From a virus (taxonomy: Duplodnaviria; Caudoviricetes): a DNA stretch of 58,737 nt. The stretch is from positions 1 to 58,737 of IMG/VR virus record IMGVR_UViG_3300037150_000108, one strand, 5' to 3'. Position 1 is the stretch's first letter; each line of letters begins with the position of its first letter. Positions 39,729 to 58,737 of this stretch are shown here, one piece after another. A program made the translations under genes and the position numbers. The notes under the pieces were generated by a model, which saw only the letters and a list, made by a program, of their open reading frames with translations, was not told where the DNA came from and ran no database searches.

Positions 39729-39734
39729 TTCGAC

Positions 39735-39767: not shown

Positions 39768-39794
39768 TAATTTGCAGGGCAAAGGAGCAGGACA

Positions 39795-40016: not shown

Positions 40017-40022
40017 CGACCT

Positions 40023-40700: not shown

Positions 40701-40724
40701 ATCGCAGCACAAGGGAGAATTGGC

Positions 40725-41906: not shown

Positions 41907-41909
41907 GCC

Positions 41910-42647: not shown

Positions 42648-42683
42648 CCATATACTGGATCGGCAGGGCAAAGGAGCCTCACA

Positions 42684-43460
42684 ATGGCAGTGCAACGGAT
42701 AGGGCAAGTGCGTCGTCTTGCGAGACGACTGGCGGCATGGCTGGACCCTTACACGCAGGAACTACTCGCAGAAGAGAATCGCAGGCGCCGGTTCGCAGAA
42801 GATCAGTTGAGTCTGCGAGGACGTAACAAATTAGAGCACGAGAATTTCCGCTTCAATTTGGAAGTTGAGTCTGAGAAGGGTGGCCCGAGATGCCCAGAGT
42901 TTACCGTGCTCAACTTCACTACCTTCGATTTGCGCATGGATGGACTTCTCAAGCGGTACTCTCTGCCACATGGAAGCGAAAAGTCATTTACTTTCAACGA
43001 CCATGTTTATTTAGCTTCTGTCTTGCGACTGAGAGAACCTCTCATCTACGGGAAGAACGTCGGGGCATTTCAGTGGGGATCGAGCCAGGGCGAGGCTGGC
43101 GCTTATCGGATGGCCGTGACTGTCACCCAAGCGCAGATCGCGGCGGCAATACTGGAGAAATTCAACCAGCGCCCAGTGTGCGGTGCCTTCTGTCTCCCGA
43201 AGGATGCGCGCGAACTTCCCGGCGTCATCGCGTTCATGGGCTCCCCCGACAAACTGCAATACGCTTTGGACTCTGGAGCATTACTTCAGATTCCAGTCAA
43301 GAGCAAGTATCTGCGCGGCAGCGTCGAGATCATGGAAGTGCTTGCGACAGAATACTTCGCGTATCAGATGGCCAATCGCGGCAAGTTGGACGAGGTTGCG
43401 ACGCAGATTCAGACGGAAGATAAGAGGATTGCCGAAGGACGTAAAAACCGGTTGGGCTAA
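42684..43460 (+). CDS. Hypothetical protein, paralog of 40725..41906
   Basis: SD AAGGAG; FTVLNF...GLLKRY...VLRLREP..GKNVGA. Confidence 0.6.
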   Translation: MAVQRIGQVRRLARRLAAWLDPYTQELLAEENRRRRFAEDQLSLRGRNKLEHENFRFNLEVESEKGGPRCPEFTVLNFTTFDLRMDGLLKRYSLPHGSEKSFTFNDHVYLASVLRLREPLIYGKNVGAFQWGSSQGEAGAYRMAVTVTQAQIAAAILEKFNQRPVCGAFCLPKDARELPGVIAFMGSPDKLQYALDSGALLQIPVKSKYLRGSVEIMEVLATEYFAYQMANRGKLDEVATQIQTEDKRIAEGRKNRLG

Positions 43461-43481
43461 ACTTTCAACAAGGAGATTTCA

Positions 43482-43850
43482 ATGCCAAACGCACTAACTC
43501 TGGTCCAAACCTCGCCGGCCTCGAACCCGGACAAGAACACCGTATCCTGCGCGGTCACTGGGGCTTATACCTCGGGAACCCCTGACCCCTTGCCGCTGGC
43601 GGCGATTGCCGATCCTCAGGAGTTGGTGCAGGTTCCGATGAATACGACTCCGCCCGTCACGCCGCGCTGGTTCGGGTTTTGTGCCGGGTACTATGCCCAG
43701 GTGCAGCGCAGCGTAAGCGCTGGTGTAACCTCCTTCGGCCTCAGATGGTTTGCCGCAGAGGGCAGCGAGCTCGCGTCGGCCAATTTCCCCGCTGCGATCC
43801 TCAATGGGGAAAGCTTCATCGAAATCCTCTGCCAAACCACTCAGCAGTGA
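43482..43850 (+). CDS. Small virion structural protein
   Basis: SD AAGGAG; beta-rich; GAYTSG.PDPL and ELASANFPA motifs. Confidence 0.55.
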   Translation: MPNALTLVQTSPASNPDKNTVSCAVTGAYTSGTPDPLPLAAIADPQELVQVPMNTTPPVTPRWFGFCAGYYAQVQRSVSAGVTSFGLRWFAAEGSELASANFPAAILNGESFIEILCQTTQQ

Positions 43851-43969
43851 TTCGCCGGAATAAATATCGGCTGGAATGGGTGTTTGCTCGGCGTGCTTAC
43901 CAAGCATTCATTTTCCGATCCCACTACGAAGCTCTTCAAAAGTATGGGACCAGCTTCTAAGAGGCTTAG

Positions 43970-46900
43970 ATGCCAACATGGGCCGGGACACCCGTACCTA
44001 TTGGAAGGATGCTCGGGCAGGTGGATCAGGACGACCCCACCAACCTGCCCGTAGGCTGCGCGGCGGTGTGCCGGAACGTGGACTTCACCAGAGACGCTAC
44101 CGGCGCGGGACTAAGCGCAACCACGCGGGCGGGCAACTCGCTTATTATTCAGGGAGTAAAGTCGCCCGGAACAGGGCTGATTGACTTCCAGTATGAGCCT
44201 GAGTCGGCAGATGATCCATTCTTTCAGCAGATACTCAGGTTCTCCATCACAGGAACCCTCGAACGTGAGTATCCAGTGGGAACAGGCCGGATGCAACCGG
44301 TTCCGGCAGGCATGTTCGTCCCTCCCACACAGAGTCACAAGATCGATGCACAGACGGCCAATCTGGTCTTTTCGTCCTATTCAGACCTGAAACGATCCAC
44401 CGCAGGGTGCTCAGGATACAACCCCAAGACTTTGAACCTCGATCCCTTGGGCATGAAGCCCTATGGGTGGAACTGGGCTCCGGCAACGTATGTCTATGCG
44501 GGCGAGGTGGCAACTCCTTCCATCTCAAACTCTGGACAGCAAGGCAACGGACACACCTACCAGGCGCAGAACTCAGGCTGGACAGCGACAACAGCCCCAG
44601 GTGAACCCGTTTGGCCTCTGACCGAGGGTGGAACGATCCTCGAGGCACCGGTGAAGGCAGGGCAGACCCCGGTTGAGTGGAAAGAGTTGACGATGGTGAT
44701 TGCAAATCGTCTTCCACAACCCGATGCCCCCGCACTTGCACTGGTCTCCGGAGGCTCTTTCCCGGCAAACCGGACAGTCTCAATCCTCCTGACCTTCACT
44801 AATGGCATGGGCGAGACCATCGCCGGGGCTACAGCGACAGTTACAACGACCGGCGCAGGGCAGGCGGTAGACGTCACTATCCCGACTTTGGCGTCTCTGG
44901 CTGGGTGGCTCTCGCAACTCGTTCCCCCGTACTCAATTCTGGGCATGAACGTTTATGAGGCTGACGTGCCTTTCGGCAATCCAGCGCCGGCGCAGTCGTC
45001 GTTCGAGCTGGTTGGGAGCTTCGCACTTGGATCCACCGCAACCGTGACGGCTACAGCAACCGGAGTGGCACCGCCAACCCTCAACAGCGCGCGCATTACT
45101 CCCGGGCAACTGCCTGCGCCGATCGTCGAGCCTGTGCTGACGCGCATCTCGGCAGGGAGCACAGTCGCCCCTCCAGGTGCTCCAGGGCTTTCCCTGCTTG
45201 GCTCTGGCGGTGCATGGCTCTACGCCCCAACCTTCCCGATCAACGTCTTTGTTTTGCTGACGCTAACCAACTCCTACGGAGAAACGACTCCAGGGGCTAT
45301 TTCCTCGATCGCAGTACCCGGGTCAGTCAATTCGGTTGAGGTTTCTCTGGCGGCGAGCTACGGGCCCACAGTAACAGGCGTGAACGTCTATGCTGCAGCA
45401 GTCGAGCCGACTGTAGGCATCCCGCTGACCAGCCAGTTCTACCTGGTAGGCAGCTTTGCGCTTGGGTCAACACCGGTTATCACCTTCGTCGACAACACGC
45501 ATGCAGTCCCTCCGCTGGTCAACACCGCAACCCTCCCGGTTGGAGCTTTTCCCGGTGGGCGAGACATTTGGGTGCGTCTGAGCTATTCGAACAACTTGGG
45601 CGAAACTCCGGTTGGGCCTTCAAACTCTATCCTCAACACGATCGCCAACGATGCGGTTCTGGTCACGCTCTCAGGAGTGGATACGCTTCCCCAGCTTGCG
45701 ACCATCAACGTGTACGAGGCTGACGTTGCCACCGGAGCTGTCGAACCCCCGATAAATGCCTATGCGCTGTTGGGGTCTTTTCCTGTAACTGCCTTGGTTT
45801 TCATCCTGCAAACGGCAGACGGCAAAGGCCCGGTCACGGTGAACGGTACTGGGCCTGGGGGGAATATCGCCGCCGACACCGCCGATGGAGGAATCAATGC
45901 GACTCAGGGCTATCGCTACGCTGTCCCAGCATGGATGAACCGCAACGAGACGGTTTCAGGCTTCACGCCCGCAGCCGCTTCGAAGTACATCGTGGACGAG
46001 GATGGTTGGGAGATTGCCGTCTTCAACGTGCCTATAGGGCCGCAAAACGTCATTGGCAGGCTGATCAACTGGACAGTAGCCGATGGAACCATCGATGGGC
46101 CATTCGCGTGGGTCGGGCAGGTCAACCTGCAGATTCCTTCAGTCGATCAGGTCTATCCCAACTCGTTTCTGTCAGATGGCATCACCATCATCCCAACCGT
46201 CTTCCTCGACAACATCACCACGCATGGCACATTCAACTTTACTGACGAGTTTCTGACGGGGAGCCTTTCGGTTGCGGCCGGAGGCAATAACACGACTGAC
46301 AGACTGACTTTGGGACCTCCTCCGCAGTCGGTGCGCATCGACTACTCAGTTACGGCAGATGCTTTGATCCATGCAGGAGTGGCTGGCTGGACCTCAGGGC
46401 TGGTAATTTCTCTGCGGGGCGACTATGAGAGCTACGACGCTTCAGGCAGCTACCTCCCCATCAGGACAAATTCAGGAGAGGTTTGCTGGGGCATCGTCGA
46501 GTATCGCAACCAAATTTACGCAATGCGCGAGCGGTCGGGGATGGTTGTTGTTCCAGGCACAGGCATGCCAAGCACGTGGGATGTGGTCGCGCGCTGGTCC
46601 GCAGCCAAGGGCAATGGCGTAGGTCCGTGCGGGCCTCGAGCTTTCGACTGCAATGGGCAGTTCATCATCTTTGTGCATCGGTCAGGACTCTACAAATACG
46701 ATGGCGAGAACGCTCCAGACCTGATGAGCAAAGAGATACCGCGGCAGTGGGGTTCAATAAACTGGGCAGCCGCAACCACCATCTGCGTATCGATCGACGA
46801 TGACACGCACACGGTAAGGCTTCAGGTCCCCACCGGCCAGAGCACCGTCCCGAATCAGGAGTTTTGCCTGTCGTATCTCGAGGGCTGGCTGAATCCAATT

Positions 46901-47500
46901 CACTTTTCCACCTTCTCACAGCGGGAAATCTCTCAGGAGGCGGCAAGACGGTGGAGTTTCAACGACGTCTCCGCCTACATCTGCAAGCGGATTTACCGCA
47001 CCGTGCCGAATCCCCCACCATTGCCTTTGGGGCCGGACGGAACTTCGCAGACAGGTTCTGACTTCTATGTCTCGCAACTTGCCTACGCGGCCAATGATCA
47101 GAGCGGCCTGATCAACGCCCGCACGCCCGGGCGATACAACGACAACGGCGCCGGAATCGATTGTAAGTACATGACCCAGAGCGCGGCCGACATGCAGAAA
47201 CAGTGCAAGCCCGAGGGTGTGACCATATCGATTGTTGGCCAGGGCGCGGTCAACGTGAGTTTTCTTGCTGGCAGACAGACCCTCACGGCAAACAAAGCAG
47301 ATACGAAGATTCTGCGGTGCACGCCGATGCAGTTGACTCCAAACGATGAGGACGACTTCACCCGCAGGCCGGACCGCAGGATCTCAACTTACTGGAAAGT
47401 GCTGCTGGACAACGGCGCACAGCCCGACGTGTGGTTCTCGGTCAAGAAGGCGATTGTTTACGTCATTCCCGTTCGGCAGGCGAGGAGCAGCAGCTCATGA
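43970..47500 (+). CDS. Tail nozzle (tubular protein B / P22 gp10-like) with inserted Ig-like repeats
   Basis: QDDPTNLP...CRNVDF N-terminus; beta-propeller-like C-half (GPCGPRAF, FVHRSGLYKYDG, MSKEI); three T.TN..GET...NVY repeats. Confidence 0.7.
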   Translation: MPTWAGTPVPIGRMLGQVDQDDPTNLPVGCAAVCRNVDFTRDATGAGLSATTRAGNSLIIQGVKSPGTGLIDFQYEPESADDPFFQQILRFSITGTLEREYPVGTGRMQPVPAGMFVPPTQSHKIDAQTANLVFSSYSDLKRSTAGCSGYNPKTLNLDPLGMKPYGWNWAPATYVYAGEVATPSISNSGQQGNGHTYQAQNSGWTATTAPGEPVWPLTEGGTILEAPVKAGQTPVEWKELTMVIANRLPQPDAPALALVSGGSFPANRTVSILLTFTNGMGETIAGATATVTTTGAGQAVDVTIPTLASLAGWLSQLVPPYSILGMNVYEADVPFGNPAPAQSSFELVGSFALGSTATVTATATGVAPPTLNSARITPGQLPAPIVEPVLTRISAGSTVAPPGAPGLSLLGSGGAWLYAPTFPINVFVLLTLTNSYGETTPGAISSIAVPGSVNSVEVSLAASYGPTVTGVNVYAAAVEPTVGIPLTSQFYLVGSFALGSTPVITFVDNTHAVPPLVNTATLPVGAFPGGRDIWVRLSYSNNLGETPVGPSNSILNTIANDAVLVTLSGVDTLPQLATINVYEADVATGAVEPPINAYALLGSFPVTALVFILQTADGKGPVTVNGTGPGGNIAADTADGGINATQGYRYAVPAWMNRNETVSGFTPAAASKYIVDEDGWEIAVFNVPIGPQNVIGRLINWTVADGTIDGPFAWVGQVNLQIPSVDQVYPNSFLSDGITIIPTVFLDNITTHGTFNFTDEFLTGSLSVAAGGNNTTDRLTLGPPPQSVRIDYSVTADALIHAGVAGWTSGLVISLRGDYESYDASGSYLPIRTNSGEVCWGIVEYRNQIYAMRERSGMVVVPGTGMPSTWDVVARWSAAKGNGVGPCGPRAFDCNGQFIIFVHRSGLYKYDGENAPDLMSKEIPRQWGSINWAAATTICVSIDDDTHTVRLQVPTGQSTVPNQEFCLSYLEGWLNPIHFSTFSQREISQEAARRWSFNDVSAYICKRIYRTVPNPPPLPLGPDGTSQTGSDFYVSQLAYAANDQSGLINARTPGRYNDNGAGIDCKYMTQSAADMQKQCKPEGVTISIVGQGAVNVSFLAGRQTLTANKADTKILRCTPMQLTPNDEDDFTRRPDRRISTYWKVLLDNGAQPDVWFSVKKAIVYVIPVRQARSSSS

Positions 47501-48297
47501 CCTACACTCCACCGGTTGACTATGACCTCATCGAATCTGCCATCAAGGGCAATCACGACTCCCTGCGCGTGCTCTTGCAGAGCTATAGCAAACAGATTCA
47601 GACGCTCAACGGTGCGACTGGGACCAGCGCAACCAACTCAAAGAACGTGGCAGCACCTCCGCAGGGCGCAATCAGCGTGCAGGGCGCGAACGGAGCTTTC
47701 AACTACTCGATCACGCCTCCGGTGCAGAATAATCCGACCGTGCTCTACCACCAGGTCAGTTACTCGCCCACCAAGACCTTTGCGAATGGCGTCGTGACTT
47801 TGCCGTGGTCGACGTCGACCTCAGGGGCAGTCAATGCGCCGGGGCAGCAGATGTTCTTTCGCCTGAAGTCCTCCTACAACACGGTGGTAGCCAATCAGCC
47901 TGTCCTGCACGGTCAAAGCGCAGTGTCTTCAGGACTTGTGTCGAGTGCGGCGATTGCCAACGGAGCAACGCTGGCGCAGACGAATATGGGCATCGTGACC
48001 AGCTCGCAGCAGTCCGGAACCGCGGCGATCAGCATCCACGGCGCTGGGGGGGGTCTGACCAGCCTGACGGCGCTCAAGAGTGGGGTGCAGTCGATCCTGC
48101 CGGCTGCGACCATCGTGGGTGCGGCGCTGGGTTCAAACAACTTCGTAGGCTACGATGGGAAGTCGTACCAGGTGAAGCCGACGCTCGGCGCAGTATTGCT
48201 CGATTCGCTCACGCCGATTGGCAAAGTCACCGTTGGTGGATCTGGCGGCGGCGGCGGGGCGGAGGCTGGTAACTCTGGAAGGATGACTAACGTATGA
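47497..48297 (+). CDS. Tail-associated structural protein
   Basis: ATGA overlap with nozzle gene; Ser/Gly/Ala-rich; FN3-like middle. Confidence 0.55.
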   Translation: MTYTPPVDYDLIESAIKGNHDSLRVLLQSYSKQIQTLNGATGTSATNSKNVAAPPQGAISVQGANGAFNYSITPPVQNNPTVLYHQVSYSPTKTFANGVVTLPWSTSTSGAVNAPGQQMFFRLKSSYNTVVANQPVLHGQSAVSSGLVSSAAIANGATLAQTNMGIVTSSQQSGTAAISIHGAGGGLTSLTALKSGVQSILPAATIVGAALGSNNFVGYDGKSYQVKPTLGAVLLDSLTPIGKVTVGGSGGGGGAEAGNSGRMTNV

Positions 48298-48638
48298 GTT
48301 GGGAAATTCAGAGTGAGTCGGTGGATTTGGCTGAGGGAACCCACAGGTTTCTGCTCATCAATCGGAGCGTGATCGACCGCTCAGGAAACGCTGCAACGCA
48401 TGAATTTACCATCATCCTGGGAAGCGGAGCGGACGGTAGTTCCTGCCCCCACTGCCAGCAGCCAGTAAGCCGAGGATTGAGTTTGGGCGAGGATGGCAGT
48501 TTGGCGCACCCAGAATTGGGGGAGTTGAAGCCTTTTGACATGGTGAAGGCCCACCTTGCGAAATTGGATGCTTTCCACGCCCGAATGGCAGCCTATGCGA
48601 AACGGCACGGCGCCACCGTCTACAAAGGGCCAAAATGA
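48294..48638 (+). CDS. Hypothetical protein
   Basis: ATGA overlaps; CPHC. Confidence 0.55.
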   Translation: MSWEIQSESVDLAEGTHRFLLINRSVIDRSGNAATHEFTIILGSGADGSSCPHCQQPVSRGLSLGEDGSLAHPELGELKPFDMVKAHLAKLDAFHARMAAYAKRHGATVYKGPK

Positions 48639-49069
48639 TGAAGGTTCGAAATTTAGAGCCGCGTGACCTTCCGCGCGTGTGGAGGATGGCAGCCGCGCAG
48701 AACAGACGCGATGGAACAAGCTACCCTGTCCCGGAGATCTTTGAACTGGACGAATCCAAGCCCGGATTCGGCAACCTAGTCCAGAACGTGCCTCTGGCGC
48801 TAGTCACAGAAAACAATGGAAGAGTCGTCAACTGCCATATTTTTACGCGAACCATAGAAGTAATGGGCTGGGGTGGAGGGCGTGACAATCACGAAATCTC
48901 TGCCGCCCACATTCCAATGGCCGCAGACTTTCTCAAACGCCGTGGCTATGACAGTTTGCTCGCTTTGGTGCCGAAACTGAGGGCAACAGATGCGCAAAGT
49001 ACACTGTTAGAGACATATGGGTTGCACCGGGTCGACAATCGCTTGGCAATGTATTTCAAAGAACTCTAG
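48635..49069 (+). CDS. GNAT-fold-like protein preceding ejection proteins
   Basis: MKVRNLEPRDLPRV N-terminus; position equivalent to podophage acetyltransferase-like genes. Confidence 0.5.
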   Translation: MMKVRNLEPRDLPRVWRMAAAQNRRDGTSYPVPEIFELDESKPGFGNLVQNVPLALVTENNGRVVNCHIFTRTIEVMGWGGGRDNHEISAAHIPMAADFLKRRGYDSLLALVPKLRATDAQSTLLETYGLHRVDNRLAMYFKEL

Positions 49070-49083
49070 GGGAGACGCCAGCG

Positions 49084-50148
49084 ATGAGTCGAGCGCAAGA
49101 GCAGCAGGTCGCAGATACAGCCCAAGGGCAGAACAAGACGTTCAATACGAACGCTCAGGACGCCTTTACCGGTGCGAATAACTCGATCACGGCGCAGCAG
49201 GGCGACGTCAATCAATATTCGAATCAGCTATCTCAGTTCGCCGCTGCGAATCCCTATGGTGCAGGTGGTGCTTTCCAGACGGCAACCAACACAGCAACGG
49301 CCGGAGCAGCCGATGCAGGGAGTCAAGCGGCAGCGCAGGCAGCGCAGGCAGCAGCAGTTAGGACCGGGCAGAACGCTTCTGGTGGAGTTGCAGCAGGAGT
49401 TGCAGCCGATCAGTCGAACACTCGCAACCTAATGACAGAGCAGGCTAAAGCCAATGCCGATCGCATCACGCAGGGAGCAGGGTACGGTGCCAAGGTCTTG
49501 CAGGCGTCCGAGGTTCCAGCGACGTTGCAGGGTGCAATCACCGGCGAGCAGGGCAAGCTGGCTACAGCCGAGGCAGATGCGGGCAATCAGTCATTGGGTA
49601 TTGACCAGAGAGCCTCAGATACTCCGAGCGAACTGGAATTGCTCCAGCAAGGAGTAATGAAGGCTGGTGAGGCGTTCGCCGGTGGCGCTGGAGCCGCTAT
49701 GTGTCCAGCTAGGGGGTCGCTGTATCTGATGGCCGATGGAACCGAGAAGGCGGTCGAGTCACTCGAAGTGGGCGAGTACATCGCCGGTATCGACGGAGAT
49801 TCGGTACTTATCGAAGAAATTCAGAGTGCCGAATCTCCAGTGTTGAGAATCGAAACTGACGATGGCCATGTACTGACCTGCTCACGAGTCCATGCCTTTG
49901 CACAGCCGGTAGGTGGATTTGTAGTGGCGATGCACTCGATGGGCAAGATGGTGCTTACCTCAAGCCGAAGCAAGATTGTTAGTGTAGACCCAGCCGGATC
50001 CGCCAAAGTATTCAACATCATCACGGACGGTTCGCACACCTACAGGGCAAATGGGATGTGGTCGCTGGGGGTCGGAGAAGCAGAGCGGCAGGTAAGCATG
50101 GATCGATGGAACTCCATCGGCGAGAAGATGGAGGCCGCTCATGGGTAA
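49084..50148 (+). CDS. DNA pilot / ejection protein with C-terminal Hint domain
   Basis: Ala/Gln/Gly-rich N-half; Hint from Cys at 49702: CPARGSLYLMADGTEKAVESLEVGE...LTCSRVH...KVFNI...HTYRANG. Confidence 0.75.
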   Translation: MSRAQEQQVADTAQGQNKTFNTNAQDAFTGANNSITAQQGDVNQYSNQLSQFAAANPYGAGGAFQTATNTATAGAADAGSQAAAQAAQAAAVRTGQNASGGVAAGVAADQSNTRNLMTEQAKANADRITQGAGYGAKVLQASEVPATLQGAITGEQGKLATAEADAGNQSLGIDQRASDTPSELELLQQGVMKAGEAFAGGAGAAMCPARGSLYLMADGTEKAVESLEVGEYIAGIDGDSVLIEEIQSAESPVLRIETDDGHVLTCSRVHAFAQPVGGFVVAMHSMGKMVLTSSRSKIVSVDPAGSAKVFNIITDGSHTYRANGMWSLGVGEAERQVSMDRWNSIGEKMEAAHG

Positions 50149-51688
50149 CGATTGGGCTGATGGTAGTGATCTTGCGCGCATGAGTCGGGGCGGCAACGTG
50201 TTGCCGGATATGGGCTACGACCCCGATGATGTAAAGATTAATCCGTCGATGCGGGCCGAGCTGATGCAGAAACTGGGCAGTCCCATGCAGCAGGTTCCCG
50301 TGCAGATGGCGCAGAACATGCCGCCGCCGCGTCCAGGCACTGACCCTGCCAGTCCAGCCAACAAGATTGACCAGAGTTATCTTCAGCACCCCCCGCCTCA
50401 GCCTGCAGCAGTTCCTGCGCAGCCCCTGCCGTCAACGCTACCCACACCGCAGAGCATGGCCGGCGGACCTCCGACAAGTTCATCTGTAAGCCCATCCGGA
50501 ACATCCACTCCGGCTGCTGCACCGATGTCATGGCAGGAACAGGCTGCACAGAAGACAGTGAATGAACGGCTTGGAGAGACGCTAACCCCTCCGGATACGA
50601 CGAAACTGGATGCAGATATCGCCTCGCGGAGCGTTCCGACAAACCCGCTCGGACAGACATACGCGCCTACTGCGATGCAGCGAATTGGCCGCGGAGTCAA
50701 GTCTGCGGTAGTTGGAGCAGCCGTAGGTGGAATACCGGGAGCGATCGTAGGAGCAGTCGAACCGGGAAAGATCATCGGCGGCAAGGACTACGGTGCTCCG
50801 AACAGTAAATATGGAGTGGCCGAATCGACTCGGAAGGCGACACTTGCAGCCGATCAGAAGCAAAGACAAGACCTTATCGACAAATTCAAGACAATGGCCG
50901 ATCTGCAAAAGGAGAGAAATACAACTCTCGCAGGAGTTGGCAAGACTACGCATGAGAGCTCCGGCGACGTAAACGTGGCGAACAAACTCCCGAATGAAAC
51001 GACGACGGCCAATGCGGACGCAACCCGAGCAGGAGCAGACCAGACGCGCGCAACGAACGAGGGCAACCCAAAGAACGAGCAGGAGGCACTTTCAAAGGCG
51101 TACACGACCGATGACCCGAAGGAAGCGGCGAAATACTTCAACATGGCGAAGGCTATGCACGCCGCGACGATCGAAGAGAAGCCGCCTCGTGCGCCTGGTG
51201 AGCAGCCAAGCGCCGGGTTGGTGGAGTTCAATGCCTTCTCAAGAGCTCGCCAGGGTGAAACTGGAAAGCCGTTGTCGTCCGATGACGTCCTGGGCTTTAT
51301 TCACAGGACTGACCCCGACGCACCTGAAGAGGTTGGGTCAATCGTGGCGCAGGCGATGGACGCCAAGCAAAAGTTTGCGGACAGTCTGACTCGCCAGCCT
51401 GACGGGACTTATCAGGATAAGGATGCCAAAGAGTACACAGCGCAGCAGTTCCAAGATCAGATCGACAAGATCGGGCGCTCGGACCCAAACACCAAGCTTG
51501 CGAAGAAGGGTTACACAATCGATGCGACTGGAAATCTGACGCCGACGCACACTTCGGCAGCGACACCGGCCGCCACCCCAGCTCCGGGCGCACCCAAGCC
51601 GCCGCGCCTCAATGAGGTGCGCAAGGGCTATCGCTACACTGGAGGAGATCCGGCCAGTCCTACAAGCTGGGCAAAAGTGAGGAAGTAG
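50141..51688 (+). CDS. Internal virion / ejection protein
   Basis: Pro-rich N-terminus; Gly/Ala hydrophobic stretch; C-terminal GYRYTGGDP..P.SW motif. Confidence 0.65.
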   Translation: MGNDWADGSDLARMSRGGNVLPDMGYDPDDVKINPSMRAELMQKLGSPMQQVPVQMAQNMPPPRPGTDPASPANKIDQSYLQHPPPQPAAVPAQPLPSTLPTPQSMAGGPPTSSSVSPSGTSTPAAAPMSWQEQAAQKTVNERLGETLTPPDTTKLDADIASRSVPTNPLGQTYAPTAMQRIGRGVKSAVVGAAVGGIPGAIVGAVEPGKIIGGKDYGAPNSKYGVAESTRKATLAADQKQRQDLIDKFKTMADLQKERNTTLAGVGKTTHESSGDVNVANKLPNETTTANADATRAGADQTRATNEGNPKNEQEALSKAYTTDDPKEAAKYFNMAKAMHAATIEEKPPRAPGEQPSAGLVEFNAFSRARQGETGKPLSSDDVLGFIHRTDPDAPEEVGSIVAQAMDAKQKFADSLTRQPDGTYQDKDAKEYTAQQFQDQIDKIGRSDPNTKLAKKGYTIDATGNLTPTHTSAATPAATPAPGAPKPPRLNEVRKGYRYTGGDPASPTSWAKVRK

Positions 51689-54600
51689 ATGGCCGACGCG
51701 GTGATGGATGGACCCTGGACCGACTACGCCGCGCCTGCCAAACCACAGGCGACTGATGACGGGCCGTGGGCTGATTACGCTCCGCCTGCACCTCCCAAGT
51801 CAGTTGCTGCAACGACACCCATCCCGGAGAACTGGCCTTCGCAGACTGACGTAGACCGCCCAACCTACTACCACGGCGATCAAGGCGCTCCGGTGGGCAT
51901 GGCGCAGTCTGGACCTCCTGGTTACACGCCGCCAGCACCACCCACGCCGAAGCCGCCCATGCCTGTCTCGGAGGGCTCGATGGGCATCACAGGGATGCGG
52001 CAGAGCGGGCCTCCGGCGTTTGCTCCCCCCTCAGTAACCTTCAATGCGCCATCGCAGGGCGGCGACAATGGCGGCAGAATTTCAACCATGCCGCAGGACC
52101 GAGTAGCCGGAACGCTGCAGATGGCTCCTCCCTCAGTCGATATGCGGTACGACACCAGCCAAGACCCTAGTGGGCAGAGCGATCCCGCCGCCCGCGCCGG
52201 GATGGTTGCGCAGATGGCACAGGACCGCGCAACCGGAACTACACGCAACGCCGCACAGTCCATGCAGAATAGGCAGGACTATGAGAATTGGTCATCCAAG
52301 CTCCCGCGCCTGGTGCCTGAAGATCATCCTCTGACTCCGGAGGAACATCAGCAGATTGCGGACTTGACTGCAAAAGCGCAGGCACATAAAGGCCCGTTCA
52401 CCCCTACGTCGCAAGAAATGGATTTACTTCGCCGCGATGCTCTGCAACGACCAGGCATTGCAGGGGCAGTTGAGATGGAGTTGAGGCAGAAGCTCTCAGA
52501 CTTTAGCCGTGTAGATCAGTTGGCTATGATAATGGCGCTCCCTGAATCCAAACTGGTAAGCCTCTACTTTGGTGGGCAGATGGCCGTAGGTGCCATGCAT
52601 GAGACGCCTGCGGCATGGGCCGCTTACCAACGTGGGCACAAGGAACTCGCGGCTAGATTGGCAACCGGGGCCATAGTGGATGCGGCAATGGCTGCACTGT
52701 CCGCAAAGCACGTTGTGGGCGATACTCCCGGCAAGATAATCAACTCGTTCGGTGCCGAGAACTGGCAGGGTGATCTCCAAGTTCCTGATGAAGATGGCAC
52801 ATCTGCCAAACCACCGATGCCGGGATCGCCATACGGCCCAACTAGGGCTGCATCCCCGCCAGTTGAGCATGGACCGTGGGAGGACTTCCGGCCAGCCGCT
52901 CCGGTTGCACCCGCCCCAGTACAGGACACAACGCGCACCTTCACCGCACCGGCTAATGCAGCGCGCCGACCAATCTCCGCAGATGTTGCCCCTGCCGCGC
53001 CGCAATCTGGCGTGAAGTTCGATACCGGGCCGTTCGACTTCGATAAGTTCGAGGGCCGTCCGGTAGTGCAGGGTTCAACCGATCCCGCAGCCATTCGAGA
53101 ATCTGCCAAAGCGCAAGAGAAGCCAACCGTAGTTGCAGTAGAGAAGGCTGTCGCAGAGGTGCCGGGTGCCGAGGTAGACGGTTCTCGCCTGAAGAATGAG
53201 GCCTCGCAGCAGAACAAAGCCGACCGCGACAAGCCTGTCGAGACGCAGAAAGACCATCTAGGTGTGCGAGTTCCAGCGGACACGCCTGAAGCTCAGACGG
53301 CGGCAGTGGGCAAGATTGCCGAGCAGATGCCTGTCGTCGGGACTGAGCCGCTGGACAACAATGGGCTGAAGGGCACGCAGGTCTTTGTAAAGACTGGCGA
53401 GGCTGGAGAGGCGAACCAGACCTCAGAGGTTCAGGTTGTGCCCACATCGCAGGTTGAGGCGATGAAAGAGACTGACCCCATGTATGACGAGCAAAAGAAG
53501 GCGCTTGCGGCAGGGGACACAGCCAAGGCAGAGGAGATCGGCAAGCAGATTCACGAGATTCACGACGCTGCGCTAAAGTCTGGTGGTGGTGTCAAGAGTG
53601 ATCATTCTGGTACACTTTCGCCGGAGTCAAATTCGGAGGGTGGAGGGGATCGCGGAGAATCGCCAGAGCCGAAGGAGGGCGGAGCAGACAACGCTCTTCC
53701 CTCCCTCGATAACGCAAACGCGAAAACTAATCAAGCAGAGCCTGTTCCCCAGGCGTCCACAGAGAGTAAGGCAGTACCAACATCAGAGAGCGCGACTGGT
53801 AAAAAGGTTGCCTCAAAGTACGATTCAGCGTCCACGCAAGCCAACTTGCCCGAGAACAGCCCTGCGGCGAAGGCTGTGCGTGCGATCCAATCGCAGATCC
53901 CGAAGCCTTACCTAGCTGGCGATGGCATTGTCCAGGACCTGCATGTAACTGTGCGGTATGGACTCAAAGCAGAAGAGATAACCCCCGAGCTTCGGCAGTG
54001 GATCGAATCCCAGACTCCATTTCAGGCTAAGTTGGGCGTCACAACCAGCTTCCCGCCAAGCAAATACTCGGATGGCGCATCTCCTTTGATCGTGCCCGTC
54101 GAATCTCCTGAACTGCATAAACTCAACGCCGAGATAGAGAAGCAGGGAGACTTTGAGCCTTCCAGCTTTCCCGACTACAAGCCGCACGTCACAGTTGCGT
54201 ACCTCGACCCGAACCAGGTCAAGAACTATGAGGGTACGTGGCTGGCGAATGGCAAGTCGTTCCCTATTGACTCGATCACCGTCAGCAAGCGCGATGGGAC
54301 CACTGAAGACATTGCGTTCAAAGGGAAGTCGGCAGAGGTTGCCCCAGTCAAGGCAGGTTCCACCGTAAAGCTCCCCGATGGCCGCATCGGGCCTGTGATT
54401 GCGCTCAAGCCGAACCGCAGCGGAGATGGCTGGATCAAGGTCGGGAGTGCAAGAATTCCCTTCAAAGCAGGCGAGGCGCAGGTAGTCGACAAGAACGCGC
54501 CAGTCGAGGGCGTGACATCGGGAACCCCTGGGCACGAAACTCCCAAGCAGGGTGCAATCGCCGTAGACCTTGACAAGACCCTCGCAGAGTACAAAACAGG

Positions 54601-57600
54601 TGAGTTCCACCCCGAAGTCATCGGCAAGCCTATTCCCGAGCAGGTCGCAGCGGTCAAGCAGATGCTGGCGGATGGGAAAGACGTGTGGATCTTCACCGCG
54701 CGCGCCTCGCATCCGGACGGACTGCCTGCGGTCAAAGCGTGGACGAAGCAGCAGTTTGGCCGCGAGTTGCCGATCACAAACGTCAAGTATCCTAATTTTG
54801 AGCGATTTATCGATGACCGGGCAGAGTTGCCGGTGCAGATGCAGGAAGGCACAACTAAGCGCAACCGTGCTTTGGGAATAGATGAACCCGAGCGGATTCC
54901 TTTGAAGATGAAAGACGGCACGCCCTTTGTTCTTCAGCGGAAGTTCGCCGGACACTACGATGCTCTGGATGCAGAAGGAAACAAGATTGGGACGTTCGGA
55001 TACTTGCGCTATCCCAGCGGCGAATGGAAGATGGCAGGCGCTGAAGTAGAACCGCAATTCAGGCGCAAAGGTATCGCTACAGCCGCCTATGATGCACTCG
55101 AAAAGGTAGTCGGCGGGAAGTTTCAAGACACAGGAAGTCAGACTGACTACGGTAGATCATTCTGGGATTCCAGACGTGAGCAAGGAGGCAAGGATGCCAG
55201 TCAGCAATCTTCAGAGACGGTGGGCAAACAGCCCGAGCGGGGTAGCGGCACTCGGAGCGAAGAAAGTCAACGAGTGGAACCAGGAGTCAAAGGGAGTGAA
55301 GTTGCCGGAGAAGTCCAGCGGCCCAGCGCAGAGCCAGCAGGTGGAAGCAAGACTGCACAAGCCGGACCCGCACGCAGCGAAGGCGAAGTTCAAGGCAATG
55401 GCGGACAAGCGCAAGGGCCGGTAGAGAAGTTCAAAGCGCAGACCGAACAGCGCAAGCCGAAACCTTTGGCGCCGGGTGAATCAGCAAAGGAGCGAAATGG
55501 AAAACAAAAAGATAGTTCTAGCCCACGTACTGCGGACGCCGGAGGACGACCCGTTTCGGAAGGCGATGAGAGCGGTGGCGAAGGAACTCAACAGACGACC
55601 GAGTACAGTCCGGAAGTCACCCGCACCGAGGGCGTAGAAGACAAGCCGATCCCTGCCGCTGCACTGCAACTCAAGCCCCTGAAGGCGATGCCGCGCAATG
55701 GGACGATGCTCAAAAACTATGAGGGCGAATACCTGAAGGCTGCTCTAGAACCGGCACGCGCGGCGTGGGAGAAGCATTTGGAAGGCGTCCCTGAAGTTGG
55801 CTTTACCGAGCCGAAGACGCAGAACGGCCGCAAGCAGTTTACCGCGCAACTGATGACGGGAACCTATCCTCAGCCGTCGCTTGAAATCAAGGCGGGACGC
55901 GACAATATGTACGCGGTGATCTTCAGCGAATACCACACCCCAAAGGGCACCCAGCAGCCCATCAAAGTCGAACAGACGCTCGCCAGCGGCCTGAGCATGA
56001 AAGCGGCGAAGGATATGGCGGAAGCGCGGTTGCGCGGCGGCGAGATGACGAATCCCGGCGAACCGTTCTACTACAACAGCCGTGAAGTGCCCGACGTCAA
56101 GATCAAGAACACCGGGACAAAGCCGGATGGATTAGCGGCCAGCAAGCTCATCGTGCAGGTTCCAGGCGACGGTCGATTCACTATTCCTAACAACTTGACT
56201 GCCATCGAAGGGGCCATAGAGAAGGCTGACAAGTTCATTCCGCCGAAGGCAGACCGCTATGCGCTGCCCCGAGTTCCGAAAGCCCCGGACGAGTTCGACA
56301 ACGCGAAGCACATCGCCAACCTGAAGCGAGAGATAACGGACCTCGAAGCTGACGTGAAGCGTGCGGGCAACACTGGCGCTGCGTCGTCGTGGCAGGCCCA
56401 ACTGGATGCCACGCGGGAGCAGTTACGGGATGCGGAGGCAGGTAAGAATCAGTCCGAAGACCCGGAAGCAGGCTTCCTCGACATCTCCCCCCTCGTCAAC
56501 ATGGCTGCACCTCTGCGTGAAAACCTAGAGCATCGCAGCGAGATAGCCGACGTAGCCAACAACGTCCACGACGTTCTGCAAAGACTCGACCGCACCAACA
56601 AAGCCTCTACCCTCGAAGCCAAGGGCATTGCACGCGCTTTCCAAGATTCTGGATTCTCGAAAGAGGATGGCGATAAGGTCTTTGCCAGCATCGAAGACCC
56701 CAAAGTCCAACTGACCCCGGACCAGATCGGCCTCAAGTACAAGTGGATAGTGCCGCTCGACAAACGCGCAGCTAGCCAGCGCGCAATCACTTTGCTCATC
56801 AAGTCGCTGTCAGACAAAGATGCACAGAAGCGACGGGCGAAAGACGGAACAGAGTTCACACTCGAAGACATTCTGGCCGGCAGGGTTCCGCCCGAAGAGG
56901 TTGAGCGCGTTGCACCGGAGCAGCCGAACTACCAGCACCGCATCGCAGTAGACAAAAACACGTTGGTCGATCGCATCCTGGGCGACTCGATGAAGCGGTT
57001 CCGCGCTGGCGGATCTGCACTCTCCCGCACCTTCCCATCGAGCAATCGAAGCGTCTTCCACGAGATTCACGGTCCTGATGGCGAGAGAGAAACTGTTGCG
57101 GTCAAGCATGGCAGAGTCACTCGCTTCCGCATGGGCGCAGACGGTAAGCCGGTCCTCGAAGACTTGGGCGCCTTCCGCTCCGGCCTGACTGATGCAGGCA
57201 AGGAAACCGACGAGCGCATGGCTCCGTTCGTCCAGCGCATCACCGAATTGCGGAAAGAGATTGCGGAGATGCCCGAGGCTGACAGGCAGGAACAACTTGC
57301 CAGCGTGCAAGCGAAGATTGCCGACCTGCGCAAGCAGATGGACTTGCTCGATAAGGTCAAAGCTCCGGTAGGACGCACTTCGATGTTCGGCGGGAAGGTT
57401 GTCTATTCGACCGAGCCCACCTTTGGGCAGCGTGCGGAGATCTCGCGCAAGCTCGACGTACTCCTGAAGCGCGAGGAGCGGCTGAAGAACAGCACCGAGC
57501 CGATGCTCAAGAAGAATGTAACCAAGATGGAAGCCCGCAAGGAAGAGTTGAAGGGCAATGAAGACTTCCGCGATGCTGCACTCGACGAAGGCGAGAAGAT

Positions 57601-58737
57601 GCAGGGCAGGGTGTGGAAGGACAAGAACGGCGACCAGTGGAAGTTTGACCGCGGCACCACGAAATTCATCTCCCAGCAGACCGGCCAGGAGTACCACGCC
57701 AACGCCATGCTTTCCTCGCTGGTCAATTGGATGGAGACGAACAAGGCCATGAACGCCGCCGTCGTCATGGAGCGGCTGAAGGGCATCCTTGCGGATGAGG
57801 GTATGGCAGTCAAGTCGGATAATCCTCTGACCGTGCCCGACGGATGGAAGGGCACGACGTTGCAGCAGATGCGCGGCTACTACTTCCCGACGCACATCGC
57901 AGAAGCTCTGGACCAGTTTGACTACCTCCAAAGTCGGGGGCAGCCGAATATCGCAGAGAAGGCCAACCGCTTCATAATACAGACGGTGCTGATGAATCCG
58001 CTCATGCACGGCAAGAACATCGCAGCCAACTTCTTCACTGGCAAGGCAGCGGAGGCAATCACCGGGCGCGCTCTGGTTCCACGATGGTACGGAGACAACG
58101 CCAAGGCAGGCGTGAAGGCCGTCAACACCCTCAAGGACATGGGAGGGCCGGAGTACCGCCGTCTGTTGCGCCTGGGGCTTGATTTGCAGGGAGCAAGCAC
58201 CTCCTTCGACCAGACGACCAAGGACATTCTGCGAGGGTTCACCGACCAACTTGCGGCCGAGCCAGCGCAGAACAAAGCTCTGAGCGCGCTGATGGGCATA
58301 GCGGACGCCGGGAAGTGGTTGCAAGACAAGAACCATCTTGCAACCTTCGGCATCAACGACTTATTCCTGTTGCAATCGTTCTACGCACGCGAGTCCGAAC
58401 TCGAACGCCAAGGCATGCCTCAGGAGCAGGCGGAGACGGCAGCACGCGATTGGGCGCATCTCCAGGTAGCTGAGTACACGACGCCTATCCGGGTGGGTGG
58501 AAGTGCAGCGTTGGGCCGGCTGATGGAGAATCCGAACCTCTCAGCCTTCTGGCGCTACCACTTTGGCGGCATCTTGCGGCCGGTAATGAACGCCGTATCG
58601 GACGCAGTCGGATCGTTCAAGCCTGAGGAGGAAAGTGATCGCAACTCCCGAGGCCAGACCGAAGCGCAGGCCCGCATCAATGCGATTGCGCGGCTGGTGG
58701 TGTTGACAGCCTTCGCAACTGTCGTCTTTCCGAAGGT
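51689..58737 (+). CDS. Giant polyvalent ejection protein (>2300 aa, 3'-truncated): RelA/SpoT-like, 2H phosphoesterase, HAD phosphatase, GNAT, helical C-terminal region
   Basis: ATG right after the upstream TAG; no stop seen where translated by hand, and its absence from the ORF track is consistent with running off the window; motifs RLK/DHLGVRV/EVQ, LHVTVRYG/PHVTVAY, DLDKT/FTAR/IDDR, FRRKGIA. Confidence 0.85.
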   Translation, partial: MADAVMDGPWTDYAAPAKPQATDDGPWADYAPPAPPKSVAATTPIPENWPSQTDVDRPTYYHGDQGAPVGMAQSGPPGYTPPAPPTPKPPMPVSEGSMGITGMRQSGPPAFAPPSVTFNAPSQGGDNGGRISTMPQDRVAGTLQMAPPSVDMRYDTSQDPSGQSDPAARAGMVAQMAQDRATGTTRNAAQSMQNRQDYENWSSKLPRLVPEDHPLTPEEHQQIADLTAKAQAHKGPFTPTSQEMDLLRRDALQRPGIAGAVEMELRQKLSDFSRVDQLAMIMALPESKLVSLYFGGQMAVGAMHETPAAWAAYQRGHKELAARLATGAIVDAAMAALSAKHVVGDTPGKIINSFGAENWQGDLQVPDEDGTSAKPPMPGSPYGPTRAASPPVEHGPWEDFRPAAPVAPAPVQDTTRTFTAPANAARRPISADVAPAAPQSGVKFDTGPFDFDKFEGRPVVQGSTDPAAIRESAKAQEKPTVVAVEKAVAEVPGAEVDGSRLKNEASQQNKADRDKPVETQKDHLGVRVPADTPEAQTAAVGKIAEQMPVVGTEPLDNNGLKGTQVFVKTGEAGEANQTSEVQVVPTSQVEAMKETDPMYDEQKKALAAGDTAKAEEIGKQIHEIHDAALKSGGGVKSDHSGTLSPESNSEGGGDRGESPEPKEGGADNALPSLDNANAKTNQAEPVPQASTESKAVPTSESATGKKVASKYDSASTQANLPENSPAAKAVRAIQSQIPKPYLAGDGIVQDLHVTVRYGLKAEEITPELRQWIESQTPFQAKLGVTTSFPPSKYSDGASPLIVPVESPELHKLNAEIEKQGDFEPSSFPDYKPHVTVAYLDPNQVKNYEGTWLANGKSFPIDSITVSKRDGTTEDIAFKGKSAEVAPVKAGSTVKLPDGRIGPVIALKPNRSGDGWIKVGSARIPFKAGEAQVVDKNAPVEGVTSGTPGHETPKQGAIAVDLDKTLAEYKTGEFHPEVIGKPIPEQVAAVKQMLADGKDVWIFTARASHPDGLPAVKAWTKQQFGRELPITNVKYPNFERFIDDRAELPVQMQEGTTKRNRALGIDEPERIPLKMKDGTPFVLQRKFAGHYDALDAEGNKIGTFGYLRYPSGEWKMAGAEVEPQFRRKGIATAAYDALEKVVGGKFQDTGSQTDYGRSFWDSRREQGGKDASQQSSETVGKQPERGSGTRSEESQRVEPGVKGSEVAGEVQRPSAEPAGGSKTAQAGPARSEGEVQGNGGQAQGPVEKFKAQTEQRKPKPLAPGESAKERNGKQKDSSSPRTADAGGRPVSEGDESGGEGTQQTTEYSPEVTRTEGVEDKPIPAAALQLKPLKAMPRNGTMLKNYEGEYLKAALEPARAAWEKHLEGVPEVGFTEPKTQNGRKQFTAQLMTGTYPQPSLEIKAGRDNMYAVIFSEYHTPKGTQQPIKVEQTLASGLSMKAAKDMAEARLRGGEMTNPGEPFYYNSREVPDVKIKNTGTKPDGLAASKLIVQVPGDGRFTIPNNLTAIEGAIEKADKFIPPKADRYALPRVPKAPDEFDNAKHIANLKREITDLEADVKRAGNTGAASSWQAQLDATREQLRDAEAGKNQSEDPEAGFLDISPLVNMAAPLRENLEHRSEIADVANNVHDVLQRLDRTNKASTLEAKGIARAFQDSGFSKEDGDKVFASIEDPKVQLTPDQIGLKYKWIVPLDKRAASQRAITLLIKSLSDKDAQKRRAKDGTEFTLEDILAGRVPPEEVERVAPEQPNYQHRIAVDKNTLVDRILGDSMKRFRAGGSALSRTFPSSNRSVFHEIHGPDGERETVAVKHGRVTRFRMGADGKPVLEDLGAFRSGLTDAGKETDERMAPFVQRITELRKEIAEMPEADRQEQLASVQAKIADLRKQMDLLDKVKAPVGRTSMFGGKVVYSTEPTFGQRAEISRKLDVLLKREERLKNSTEPMLKKNVTKMEARKEELKGNEDFRDAALDEGEKMQGRVWKDKNGDQWKFDRGTTKFISQQTGQEYHANAMLSSLVNWMETNKAMNAAVVMERLKGILADEGMAVKSDNPLTVPDGWKGTTLQQMRGYYFPTHIAEALDQFDYLQSRGQPNIAEKANRFIIQTVLMNPLMHGKNIAANFFTGKAAEAITGRALVPRWYGDNAKAGVKAVNTLKDMGGPEYRRLLRLGLDLQGASTSFDQTTKDILRGFTDQLAAEPAQNKALSALMGIADAGKWLQDKNHLATFGINDLFLLQSFYARESELERQGMPQEQAETAARDWAHLQVAEYTTPIRVGGSAALGRLMENPNLSAFWRYHFGGILRPVMNAVSDAVGSFKPEEESDRNSRGQTEAQARINAIARLVVLTAFATVVFPK
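55194..55424 (+). CDS. Small basic protein overprinted in the +1 frame of the giant gene (76 aa)
   Basis: SD AAGGAGG; MPVSNLQRRWANSPSGVAALGAKKVNEWNQESKGVKLPEK. Confidence 0.6.
   Translation: MPVSNLQRRWANSPSGVAALGAKKVNEWNQESKGVKLPEKSSGPAQSQQVEARLHKPDPHAAKAKFKAMADKRKGR
55497..55637 (+). CDS. Second small overprinted ORF in the +1 frame (46 aa)
   Basis: SD AAGGAG; MENKKIVLAHVLRTPEDDPFRKAMRAVAKELNRR... Confidence 0.45.
   Translation: MENKKIVLAHVLRTPEDDPFRKAMRAVAKELNRRPSTVRKSPAPRA

Follow-up and report, generated by a model that had tools for sequence, protein, structure and literature searches.

The last gene in the late block of IMG/VR record IMGVR_UViG_3300037150_000108, a 58,737-nucleotide stretch of tailed-phage DNA (Duplodnaviria; Caudoviricetes) that we refer to in its entirety as the window, is a single giant open reading frame (ORF) whose product carries four genuine enzyme domains on low-complexity linkers, ahead of a conserved C-terminal anchor. 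In order, these are a divergent RelA/SpoT-type pyrophosphokinase (hereafter the synthetase-like domain), a 2H phosphoesterase, a small HAD-type phosphatase, and a GNAT acetyltransferase, and the first three are each found again in independent metagenomic proteins. The reading that we favor, at a probability of roughly 0.55, is that this cassette would form the effector part of a polyvalent protein of the phage type that is delivered into the host and combines a (p)ppApp-type enzyme with enzymes destroying immune signals. An earlier note on this DNA, made from the letters alone, had proposed the same four domains, and all four identities hold, namely those of the RSH (RelA/SpoT homolog) and GNAT domains by fold match, that of the 2H domain by Pfam, and that of the HAD domain by PHROGs together with its motifs. 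The motifs on which the note had built, RLK (R500-K502, nt 53186), DHLGVRV (D522, nt 53252), EVQ (E580-Q582, nt 53426), HVTV (nt 53942 and 54185), DLDKT (nt 54566), FTAR (T1003), IDDR (D1042-D1043), and FRRKGIA (residues ~1123-1129), are all present in the translation.

The giant ORF (51689-58735, plus strand) begins with an ATG immediately 3' of the stop of ORF 50141-51688 and runs through 2,349 codons with zero stops; an in-frame stop splitting the frame, which the earlier note had named as fatal to its proposal, does not occur. The frame is still open at the end of the contig, where position 58735 closes the last full codon, the two contig ends show no overlap, and the C-termini of homologous proteins extend ~260 residues beyond the cut point. 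Taken together, this indicates that the gene was cut by the assembly and not terminated by a stop codon, and the full-length protein probably comprises ~2,600 amino acids (aa). CheckV rates the record as 73 % complete. No continuation of the giant frame was found in the first 2.5 kb of the window, and closure into a circle was rejected: a 5'-open frame at 2-415 lies in the matching phase, yet it has no similarity to the C-termini of the homologs, and the ends are non-overlapping. Long antisense ORFs are also seen within the giant gene, for example 53912-55126 on the minus strand, and are probably by-products of the high G+C content.

The first domain is, as judged from its motifs and its structural model, a divergent RelA/SpoT-type pyrophosphokinase with an intact catalytic core and a non-canonical acceptor loop. 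When 1.84 billion representatives were searched by HMMER (E ≤ 1e-3), the query with residues 440-690 returned a family of 75 clusters, 18 of them at E ≤ 1e-30, with proteins between 203 aa and 5,041 aa in size, and a local profile detected the domain in 83 of 93 stored proteins. This family is known from uncultured sequences only, and a protein search of 50,697 cultured phage records found the domain in none of them. For the Pfam scan and for AlphaFold, an alignment of 44 rows was used, consisting of the window domain and 43 smaller family members. In this set, 26 of the 44 proteins match Pfam RelA_SpoT (PF04607) at E ≤ 0.01 (best 5e-12), and the AlphaFold model obtained from the alignment, with a mean pLDDT (predicted local distance difference test) of 92.4, displays a pol-beta-like synthetase fold with the flanking helices typical of small alarmone synthetases (SAS). 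Foldseek (E 3.9e-6) retrieved 45 PDB matches at E ≤ 0.001 for this model, and those at the head of the list are RelP, RelQ, a Streptomyces alarmone synthetase that is exported (SaSAS), CapRel, Rel, Tas1, and FaRel2. With VIA-align, the best 29 rows listed are all RSH synthetases (Z 14.7-8.0) and are followed by generic nucleotidyltransferases at Z ≤ 7.4; RelQ ranks at the top with Z 14.7 and 170 of 191 residues aligned, while Tas1 and CapRel reach Z 13.1 and 12.7, respectively. The family profile furthermore finds 19 RelA/SpoT-family chains in the PDB (E 6e-5 to 0.056), which align motif to motif. Searches of the PDB with single-sequence segments of the synthetase-like, 2H, and HAD domains returned nothing significant.

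The catalytic motifs are present and aligned with those of Rel enzymes, that is R-x-K...K for the ATP phosphates, D-x-x-G/A-x-R for the metal, and E-x-Q. Conservation among the 83 members is close to complete for R500 (80), K502 (79), K510 (81), D522 (83), E580 (83), Q582 (82), and Y599 (80), and on this sequence evidence the enzyme core looks active. A match to the Zeta-toxin kinase family was seen in 2 of the 44 aligned proteins (best E 6e-5).

The second domain is assigned to the 2H superfamily by its sequence. It scores 40.9 bits against PF13563, the '2'-5' RNA ligase' superfamily model (cutoff 27, E 2.8e-10), and matches phrog_755 at E 1.6e-10. Both HxT motifs are in place, H752-V-T754 (nt 53942) and H833-V-T835 (nt 54185), and among 27 family members the first is retained in 96 % and the second in 80-95 %. 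Chains of the anti-CBASS (cyclic-oligonucleotide-based antiphage signaling system) enzyme Acb1 are the only PDB sequences touched by the domain, weakly (E 0.2-0.45), and the Acb1 model PF23474 matches 9 of the 44 aligned proteins of the synthetase-like family at E ≤ 0.01 (best 4.7e-8). Among cultured phages, the 2H domain has its nearest relative in a 1,362-aa protein of the jumbo phage Tunturi_5 (a Tunturiibacter phage; positions 261501-265589), with 36.6 % identity over 191 residues. The gene has a head-tail connector gene on one side and a minor tail protein gene on the other; its product, annotated as 'MutT/NUDIX hydrolase', is likely a polyvalent virion protein in a cultured phage.

HAD phosphatases are recognized by four motifs that follow each other in the order DxDxT (I), T/S (II), K (III), and DD (IV). 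In the third domain, these correspond to D960-x-D962-x-T964 (nt 54566), T1003, K1033, and D1042-D1043, and in 15 aligned members D962, K1033, D1042, and D1043 never vary, at least 90 % retain D960 and T964, and T or S occupies position 1003 in 15 of 15. The sequence indicates a small HAD phosphatase, which among the four domains has the weakest database support: the PHROG matches are to phrog_1238 (E 1.2e-9) and, at E 0.0066, to phrog_415 ('polynucleotide kinase'), and Pfam gives zero matches for the window's own HAD sequence. HAD_PNKP is found in 4 of the 15 members at a marginal best E of 0.017, with NT5C and Acid_PPase at E ~0.1, and the HAD profile meets a single PDB entry, 9iqw, at a weak E of 0.49. 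Small stand-alone HAD genes with 41-49 % identity were detected by tblastn in Vibrio, Rhizobium, Ralstonia, and Cronobacter phages, for example in Vibrio phage PVA7, where the relative lies between the genes for thyX and a DNA polymerase.

The fourth domain is, according to its model, a minimal GNAT with the GNAT core fold. While the single-sequence fold model of the whole cassette has a mean pLDDT of 41.6 and is usable in the GNAT part only, this part reaches a pLDDT of 70-87. After trimming of the low-confidence parts, all 50 rows listed by VIA-align against 48,161 PDB representatives are GNAT enzymes (Z 9.8-6.4, 63-93 residues aligned). Pfam Acetyltransf_1 scores 18.7 bits, below its cutoff of 20.7. 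The acetyl-CoA loop of GNAT enzymes follows the consensus R/Q-x-x-G-x-G/A and reads R-R-K-G-I-A here. The GNAT segment is present in none of 19 homologs of the giant protein (see below) and is hence a recent addition.

The association of these domains is recurrent. Among the 75 clusters, the synthetase-like domain occurs alone in 38, with HAD in 15, with 2H in 9, and with both in 13, so that it is partnered in 37 of 75; it comes first in every case, and 2H and HAD follow in either order. When proteins of at least 400 aa are considered, a partner domain is found in 37 of 61. Many of the clusters with the domain alone stop less than 200 residues past it and may be fragments. A tree was built from the 35 rows in which the domain is followed by 450 residues or more; a shorter tail or a partial domain led to the omission of 48 of the 83 rows. 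It contains two well-supported clades, and a partner domain is present in 20 of the 21 rows of the window's clade. The tree requires 3 changes for the presence of any partner, 11 for that of 2H, and 15 for the architecture labels. Since labels are shared through kinship, these numbers speak for a steady association with reshuffling and do not amount to proof of coupling. In IMG/VR, a single-protein query found no close relatives of the cassette, and the locus scan was performed with an alignment narrower than the 44-row set, which was too diverse for this purpose.

For the C-terminal part, residues 1500-2349 were used as query, 7,997 candidates were scored, and 19 homologs of 1,931-3,422 aa were obtained, all of which share the anchor (residues 1601-2349) and differ in their middle parts: the synthetase-like domain is present in 9, 2H in 5, and HAD in 9 of the 19. 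When these homologs and the window giant are taken together (20 proteins), Pfam identifies SLT in 2 and a histidine phosphatase, ddrB-ParB, and LPD1 in 1 each, while the PHROGs include a portal domain (phrog_21, E 1.4e-61) and 'internal virion protein with endolysin domain', each in one protein, as well as 'lytic tail protein' in two. The anchor itself has no Pfam or PHROG match; an Atlas lead points to LPD38, carried by 28 % of one cluster. The 50,697 cultured phage records gave no DNA match and no protein match to the anchor. Near its cut end, the window protein has its sole strongly hydrophobic segment (residues 2328-2348, nt 58670-58732), which recurs at the equivalent position in 5 homologs, ~260 residues ahead of their C-termini. 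Four further viral records carry a giant gene at the equivalent genome position, namely G006 (4534-13572, minus strand), G009 (contig start to 5058, minus strand), G014 (49273-53697, plus strand), and G017 (54788-63274, plus strand). Their products contain the synthetase-like domain with HAD and/or 2H and do not match the window's C-terminal profile; hence, the cassette sits on at least two different anchors, and the effector cassette has moved between them.

The position of the giant gene is likewise conserved. For most of the late block (32543-51688), the gene order is retained in 9 IMG/VR records, each with homologs of the same 8-10 late genes, which a giant gene directly follows; its neighbor is the homolog of the 515-aa ORF in 9 of 9, and in G017, whose completeness is rated at 100 %, it is the last gene. 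An Atlas lead connects the 434-aa late ORF with the capsid protein family of podovirus SU10, and among viral proteins the synthetase-like model finds its best fold matches in large proteins of uncultured phages annotated with DdrB-like and ART-PolyVal-like domains. Together with the virion-type domains in relatives, the synteny is consistent with a giant protein that would be particle-associated and of the polyvalent type. Apart from the giant, none of the window's proteins matched a stored homolog. Overall, the block looks like that of an unannotated lineage of tailed phages: its plus-strand ORFs, those of 853, 566, 434, and 1,176 aa among them, have neither a PHROG match nor a Pfam match above cutoff. 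A 354-aa late protein (49084-50148, plus strand) shows a weak match to Hint (PF05203, 19.8 bits, cutoff 32.1) and is kept in 8 of the 9 related records.

The HD hydrolase that the earlier note had mentioned does exist in the window and turned out to be of particular interest, as residues 157-298, in the C-terminal half of this 304-aa protein, match PDB entry 7smg, a '(p)ppApp hydrolase', at E 5.3e-24, with the hydrolase domains of Rel and RelA far behind (E 1e-5 and weaker). Pfam HD_4 scores 22 bits, below its cutoff of 27.2. According to passages in Ahmad et al. 2023 (PMC10083569), 7SMG is Aph1, a (p)ppApp-specific hydrolase that acts as the immunity protein of a prophage-encoded, MuF-fused (p)ppApp synthetase toxin, Apk2, and Paulet et al. 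2025 (PMC12226406) describe, in the part drawn on here, further prophages with such toxin/hydrolase pairs. Aph1-like genes occur in 2 of 16 other viral records with the synthetase-like domain (G006, E 2.6e-20; G009, E 4.8e-15), in 0 of 3 relatives without it, and in 332 of the 50,697 cultured phage records. This is an enrichment with the synthetase-like domain, in a small sample of interrelated records, many of them fragments, and it makes the Aph1-like hydrolase a plausible partner of that domain. The N-terminal 150 residues of the Aph1-like protein, which have a Cys-rich start, lack any match, and the counterparts from G006 (173 aa) and G009 (258 aa) do not conserve them.

Table 1. Features of the giant gene and the Aph1-like gene in the window (residues are those of the giant protein).
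Feature	Residues	Position	Strand	Evidence
Giant open frame, last gene of the late block	1-2349	51689..58735	+	open-frame check, homologs
N-terminal Pro/Ala/Gly-rich region	1-454	51689..53050	+	composition, motif scan
Predicted RelA/SpoT-type pyrophosphokinase domain (small-alarmone-synthetase-like)	455-630	53051..53578	+	AlphaFold, Foldseek, VIA-align, family profile
Ser/Gly/Ala/Glu-rich linker	631-708	53579..53812	+	composition; low model confidence
Predicted 2H phosphoesterase domain (H752-x-T754 and H833-x-T835)	709-880	53813..54328	+	Pfam, PHROG, conservation
Short strand-rich segment preceding HAD	881-953	54329..54547	+	strands from low-confidence model
Predicted small cap-less HAD-type phosphatase domain	954-1051	54548..54841	+	PHROG, motif conservation
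Predicted minimal GNAT acetyltransferase domain	1060-1154	54866..55150	+	fold comparison
Low-complexity linker (~1155-1400), then part common to 3 homologs (~1400-1600)	~1155-1600	55151..56488	+	composition, homolog coverage
Conserved C-terminal 'anchor' (cut off by contig end)	1601-2349	56489..58735	+	common to 19/19 homologs
Aph1-like protein, 304 aa		11865..12779	-	PDB sequence match, C-terminal half

Some of the segments outside the enzymes recur as well. The strand-rich stretch at residues 881-953 accompanies the HAD domain in close relatives, as BLASTP matches to two of them (P0003 and P0006) start at residues 881-882. From the N-terminal region, residues ~265-345 are the only part found again, in a few homologs. 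The Pro/Ala-rich N-terminus contains three copies of the short motif G-P-W-x-D-Y/F, at residues 8, 25, and 395 (nt 51710, 51761, and 52871), which may serve for docking.

In the mechanism that we propose, the giant protein would be packed into the particle and either enter the cell with the DNA or act at the envelope during entry; its enzymes would thus work ahead of phage gene expression. The pyrophosphokinase would transfer the beta-gamma pyrophosphate of ATP to the 3'-OH of a nucleotide. The favored acceptor is an adenine nucleotide, which would yield (p)ppApp as with Tas1 and Apk2, and GTP/GDP or the CCA end of tRNA may serve instead; the preference for adenine is solely due to the Aph1-like gene. 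The product would presumably bring host metabolism or translation to an abrupt halt, and the Aph1-like hydrolase would later clear it and shield the cell that produces the giant protein as well. For the 2H and HAD enzymes, the targets would be 2',3'-cyclic phosphates and 2'/3'-monophosphates on nucleotides or at the ends of RNA; most likely, these enzymes would destroy cyclic-oligonucleotide immune signals and dephosphorylate the products, while the GNAT domain might acetylate a host target. The steady fusion of three predicted ribose-2'/3' enzymes is, in our view, the most intriguing feature of the locus, and it is explained by none of the readings tested.

Several observations weigh against this favored reading. 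With regard to the kinase, the window's own domain has no PF04607 match (53036-53608 at E ≤ 0.01, and the whole giant protein at E ≤ 1) and no match in the PHROGs. Tas1 is not the nearest structure, with Z 13.1 as compared to 14.7 for RelQ, which is a near tie. The Tyr/His loop that stacks the guanine is replaced by GLKGTQ (residues 559-564), a divergence that the earlier note had correctly singled out, and the loop is variable in the family, with only G559 kept (69 of 83). As the acceptor loop is not conserved, the acceptor cannot be read from the sequence; in line with this, motif swaps neither switch nor predict acceptor specificity according to passages in Paulet et al. 2025 (PMC12226406). 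The 2H domain falls short of the gathering cutoff of the Acb1 family (PF23474, 24.9 bits, cutoff 27), and the setting of the stand-alone HAD relatives among genes of nucleotide metabolism and replication in a Vibrio phage hints at a nucleotide phosphatase, not necessarily one of an immune-signal pathway. The Aph1-like gene lies 39 kb from the synthetase-like domain on the opposite strand. It is also missing in 14 of the 16 other domain-carrying records, including 3 of the 5 rated 89-100 % complete, for which reason it was rejected as an obligate partner; it could counter host toxins instead. As for delivery, Pfam finds no SLT, MuF, portal, or peptidase domain in the window giant, ten ORFs between 36522 and 51688 are without a PHROG match and without a Pfam match above cutoff, and two late-block proteins had no useful match to PDB sequences, so that the case for a structural block is made by synteny and one Atlas lead.

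The main rival holds that the cassette is a toolkit for RNA or tRNA ends, in which the 2H enzyme would open the 2',3'-cyclic phosphates that host anticodon nucleases or HEPN RNases leave behind, a PNKP-like HAD would strip the phosphate, and the kinase would cap or block the tRNA CCA end, as CapRel and FaRel2 do. It can draw on HAD_PNKP as the best Pfam family of the HAD members and on the phrog_415 match, on the 2H domain scoring best with the '2'-5' RNA ligase' superfamily model, on the near-tied structure of CapRel, a tRNA pyrophosphokinase, and on the steady three-domain fusion, which suggests one shared substrate. However, no 5'-kinase or RNA ligase domain was found in the giant protein or in 40 other window ORFs scanned, 2H domains of polyvalent proteins are never linked to ligases in the text of Iyer et al. 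2017 (PMC5512222), the evidence for the HAD domain is weak, and the Aph1-like hydrolase points to a nucleotide product and not to tRNA; we regard this toolkit as unlikely, although it is the alternative to be taken most seriously. The same hydrolase would fit a toxin for competition, with a synthetase-like domain that kills rival bacteria or superinfecting phages, the Aph1-like protein as immunity, and 2H, HAD, and GNAT as further toxins, as proposed for MuF-Apk2/Aph1 of temperate phages. That both components lie within one phage genome, that prophage Apk2 toxins with Aph1 immunity are established in the passages cited above (PMC10083569, PMC12226406), and that 2 of 44 family members carry a Zeta-toxin domain speak for this scenario. 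It is nevertheless improbable, given that the giant has no MuF or other toxin-delivery domain, that no integrase was found among the 40 window ORFs scanned, and that the hydrolase gene does not adjoin the toxin gene, unlike in Apk2/Aph1, and is mostly absent from related records. A third chemistry would be that of one coupled pathway entering with the DNA, in which the kinase would tag the free 3'-OH of a host immune messenger or of tRNA and 2H and HAD would process the tagged or cyclic product; we hold it to be a doubtful proposition.

The protein might conceivably also not be delivered at all, but be a late cytoplasmic, external, or tail-associated structural protein whose enzymes are active inside the cell that makes it or in the periplasm. 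The proteins of the late block cannot be annotated, the one hydrophobic segment is the only membrane-like feature, and the 'lytic tail protein' domains of relatives could equally mark a tail-tip protein. Against this stand the enzymes themselves, which depend on ATP and acetyl-CoA and hence require the cytoplasm, the position as last late gene kept in 9 records, the portal and internal-virion-protein domains in relatives, and the logic of polyvalent proteins, which in the passages of Iyer et al. (PMC5512222) argues for delivery, so that we consider such a location quite improbable. That the enzyme-like segments are decayed relics serving as spacers would agree with a window sequence below the Pfam thresholds for RelA_SpoT, Acb1, HAD, and GNAT, but seems far-fetched in view of the retention of catalytic residues (79-83 of 83 in the RSH domain, HxT pairs in at least 80 % of 27, HAD motifs in 14-15 of 15) and the confident models of the synthetase-like and GNAT domains. 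Polyvalent delivery with (p)ppApp-type and signal-destroying enzymes thus remains the reading that we prefer.

The remainder of the contig is phage-like in its contents, with an Erf-like annealing protein, a 507-aa protein with a tail-fibre-like C-terminus, RusA, YqaJ, a DNA methylase, DnaB, and a tRNA-Trp gene. The methyltransferase and the tRNA that the earlier note had counted among accessory functions are hence both present. Its Acb2-like sponge was not recovered, as Pfam gave no such match in the 40 window ORFs scanned, which are of 100 residues or more. A 125-codon ORF (26678-27055, plus strand) that overlaps the tRNA-Trp gene (26825-26900) is unlikely to be a genuine gene. A pentapeptide-repeat protein encoded in the leftward early block (20637-21359, minus strand; PF00805, E 2.9e-39) may be an anti-restriction or gyrase-protecting factor, by analogy with the ability of such proteins to mimic DNA.

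Polyvalent proteins were predicted in 2017 to be a first strike of phages, and almost none has been tested. The locus described here offers a compact test case, with an intact synthetase-like domain, recurrent 2H and HAD partners, and a phage-encoded protein resembling the one (p)ppApp-specific hydrolase known so far. Were the synthetase to produce (p)ppApp and the hydrolase to remove it, a timed poison and antidote would let the phage take over host energy metabolism; if the three domains share one substrate, they would point to a new means of disarming nucleotide-based immunity. Either outcome would extend the knowledge of alarmone enzymes outside the stringent response. Should the coupled pathway apply, enzymatic 3'-pyrophosphorylation would be turned against host defence, a use of this chemistry that has yet to be reported from phages, on interchangeable giant anchors across many uncultured phages.

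Comparison with known systems places the giant protein between several of them. Set against the gene order of T7, it resembles gp16 in being the largest protein and in lying at the end of the late block, past putative capsid and tail genes; distant relatives carry an SLT domain, and one matches the PHROG 'internal virion protein with endolysin domain'. In contrast to gp16, with which the window giant has no sequence or domain match, it is about twice the size and carries cytoplasmic enzymes. The HAD domain shares DxDxT, T/S, K, and DD with the HAD 3'-phosphatase of the T4 Pnkp type, and HAD_PNKP is the best Pfam family among its members; unlike T4 Pnkp, it has no attached kinase domain, and its stand-alone relatives lie amid nucleotide-metabolism genes. 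With Acb1, an anti-CBASS 2H phosphodiesterase, the second domain has the predicted 2H fold and two HxT motifs in common, but Acb1 is a free protein of ~150 aa, whereas the window 2H sits inside a giant protein and is scored higher by the general 2H model than by the Acb1 model. RelQ/RelP, Tas1, CapRel, and FaRel2 share their fold with the synthetase-like domain over 158-172 of 191 residues (Z 12.7-14.7) as well as the same catalytic motifs; identity amounts to 11-22 %, and their Tyr/His loop is replaced in the window domain.

The MuF-Apk2/Aph1 systems likewise combine a phage RelA/SpoT-fold domain on a carrier, which is head-associated for Apk2, with an Aph1-type hydrolase in the same phage. 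They differ in that the carrier is MuF and the immunity gene lies directly downstream of the toxin gene, whereas the window giant lacks MuF, has another anchor, is encoded 39 kb away from the hydrolase, and possesses the extra 2H, HAD, and GNAT domains. The motif variants, GVR and VVP in the window family as compared to RYT and YH in Apk2, mark a separate family.

The closest conceptual precedent is that of the phage-type polyvalent proteins, for which RelA/SpoT, 2H, and GNAT are listed in the passages of Iyer et al. 2017 (PMC5512222) drawn on here, with RelA/SpoT and 2H confined to the phage type. [quoted passage not shown] The polyvalent-protein reading of the earlier note is well compatible with this concept. 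The window giant is a huge single polypeptide (more than 2,349 aa) that joins at least two, in fact four, unrelated catalytic domains and is encoded beside particle genes, and one relative each matches LPD1 and ddrB-ParB. A processing metallopeptidase, a methylase-helicase pair, and a ParB domain, as described by Iyer et al., are not present in it. Within the literature searched, work joining '2H phosphoesterase' with 'alarmone' comes from the group of Iyer et al. only. Since a polyvalent concept with RelA/SpoT, 2H, and GNAT was published in 2017, the general idea is not new; the passages of that paper drawn on here make no mention of a HAD partner or of a RelA/SpoT-2H-HAD unit. Compared with these passages, the new elements are a divergent synthetase family, its recurrent fusion to one 2H and one HAD family, the exchange of the cassette between giant anchors, and an Aph1-like gene in the same genome.

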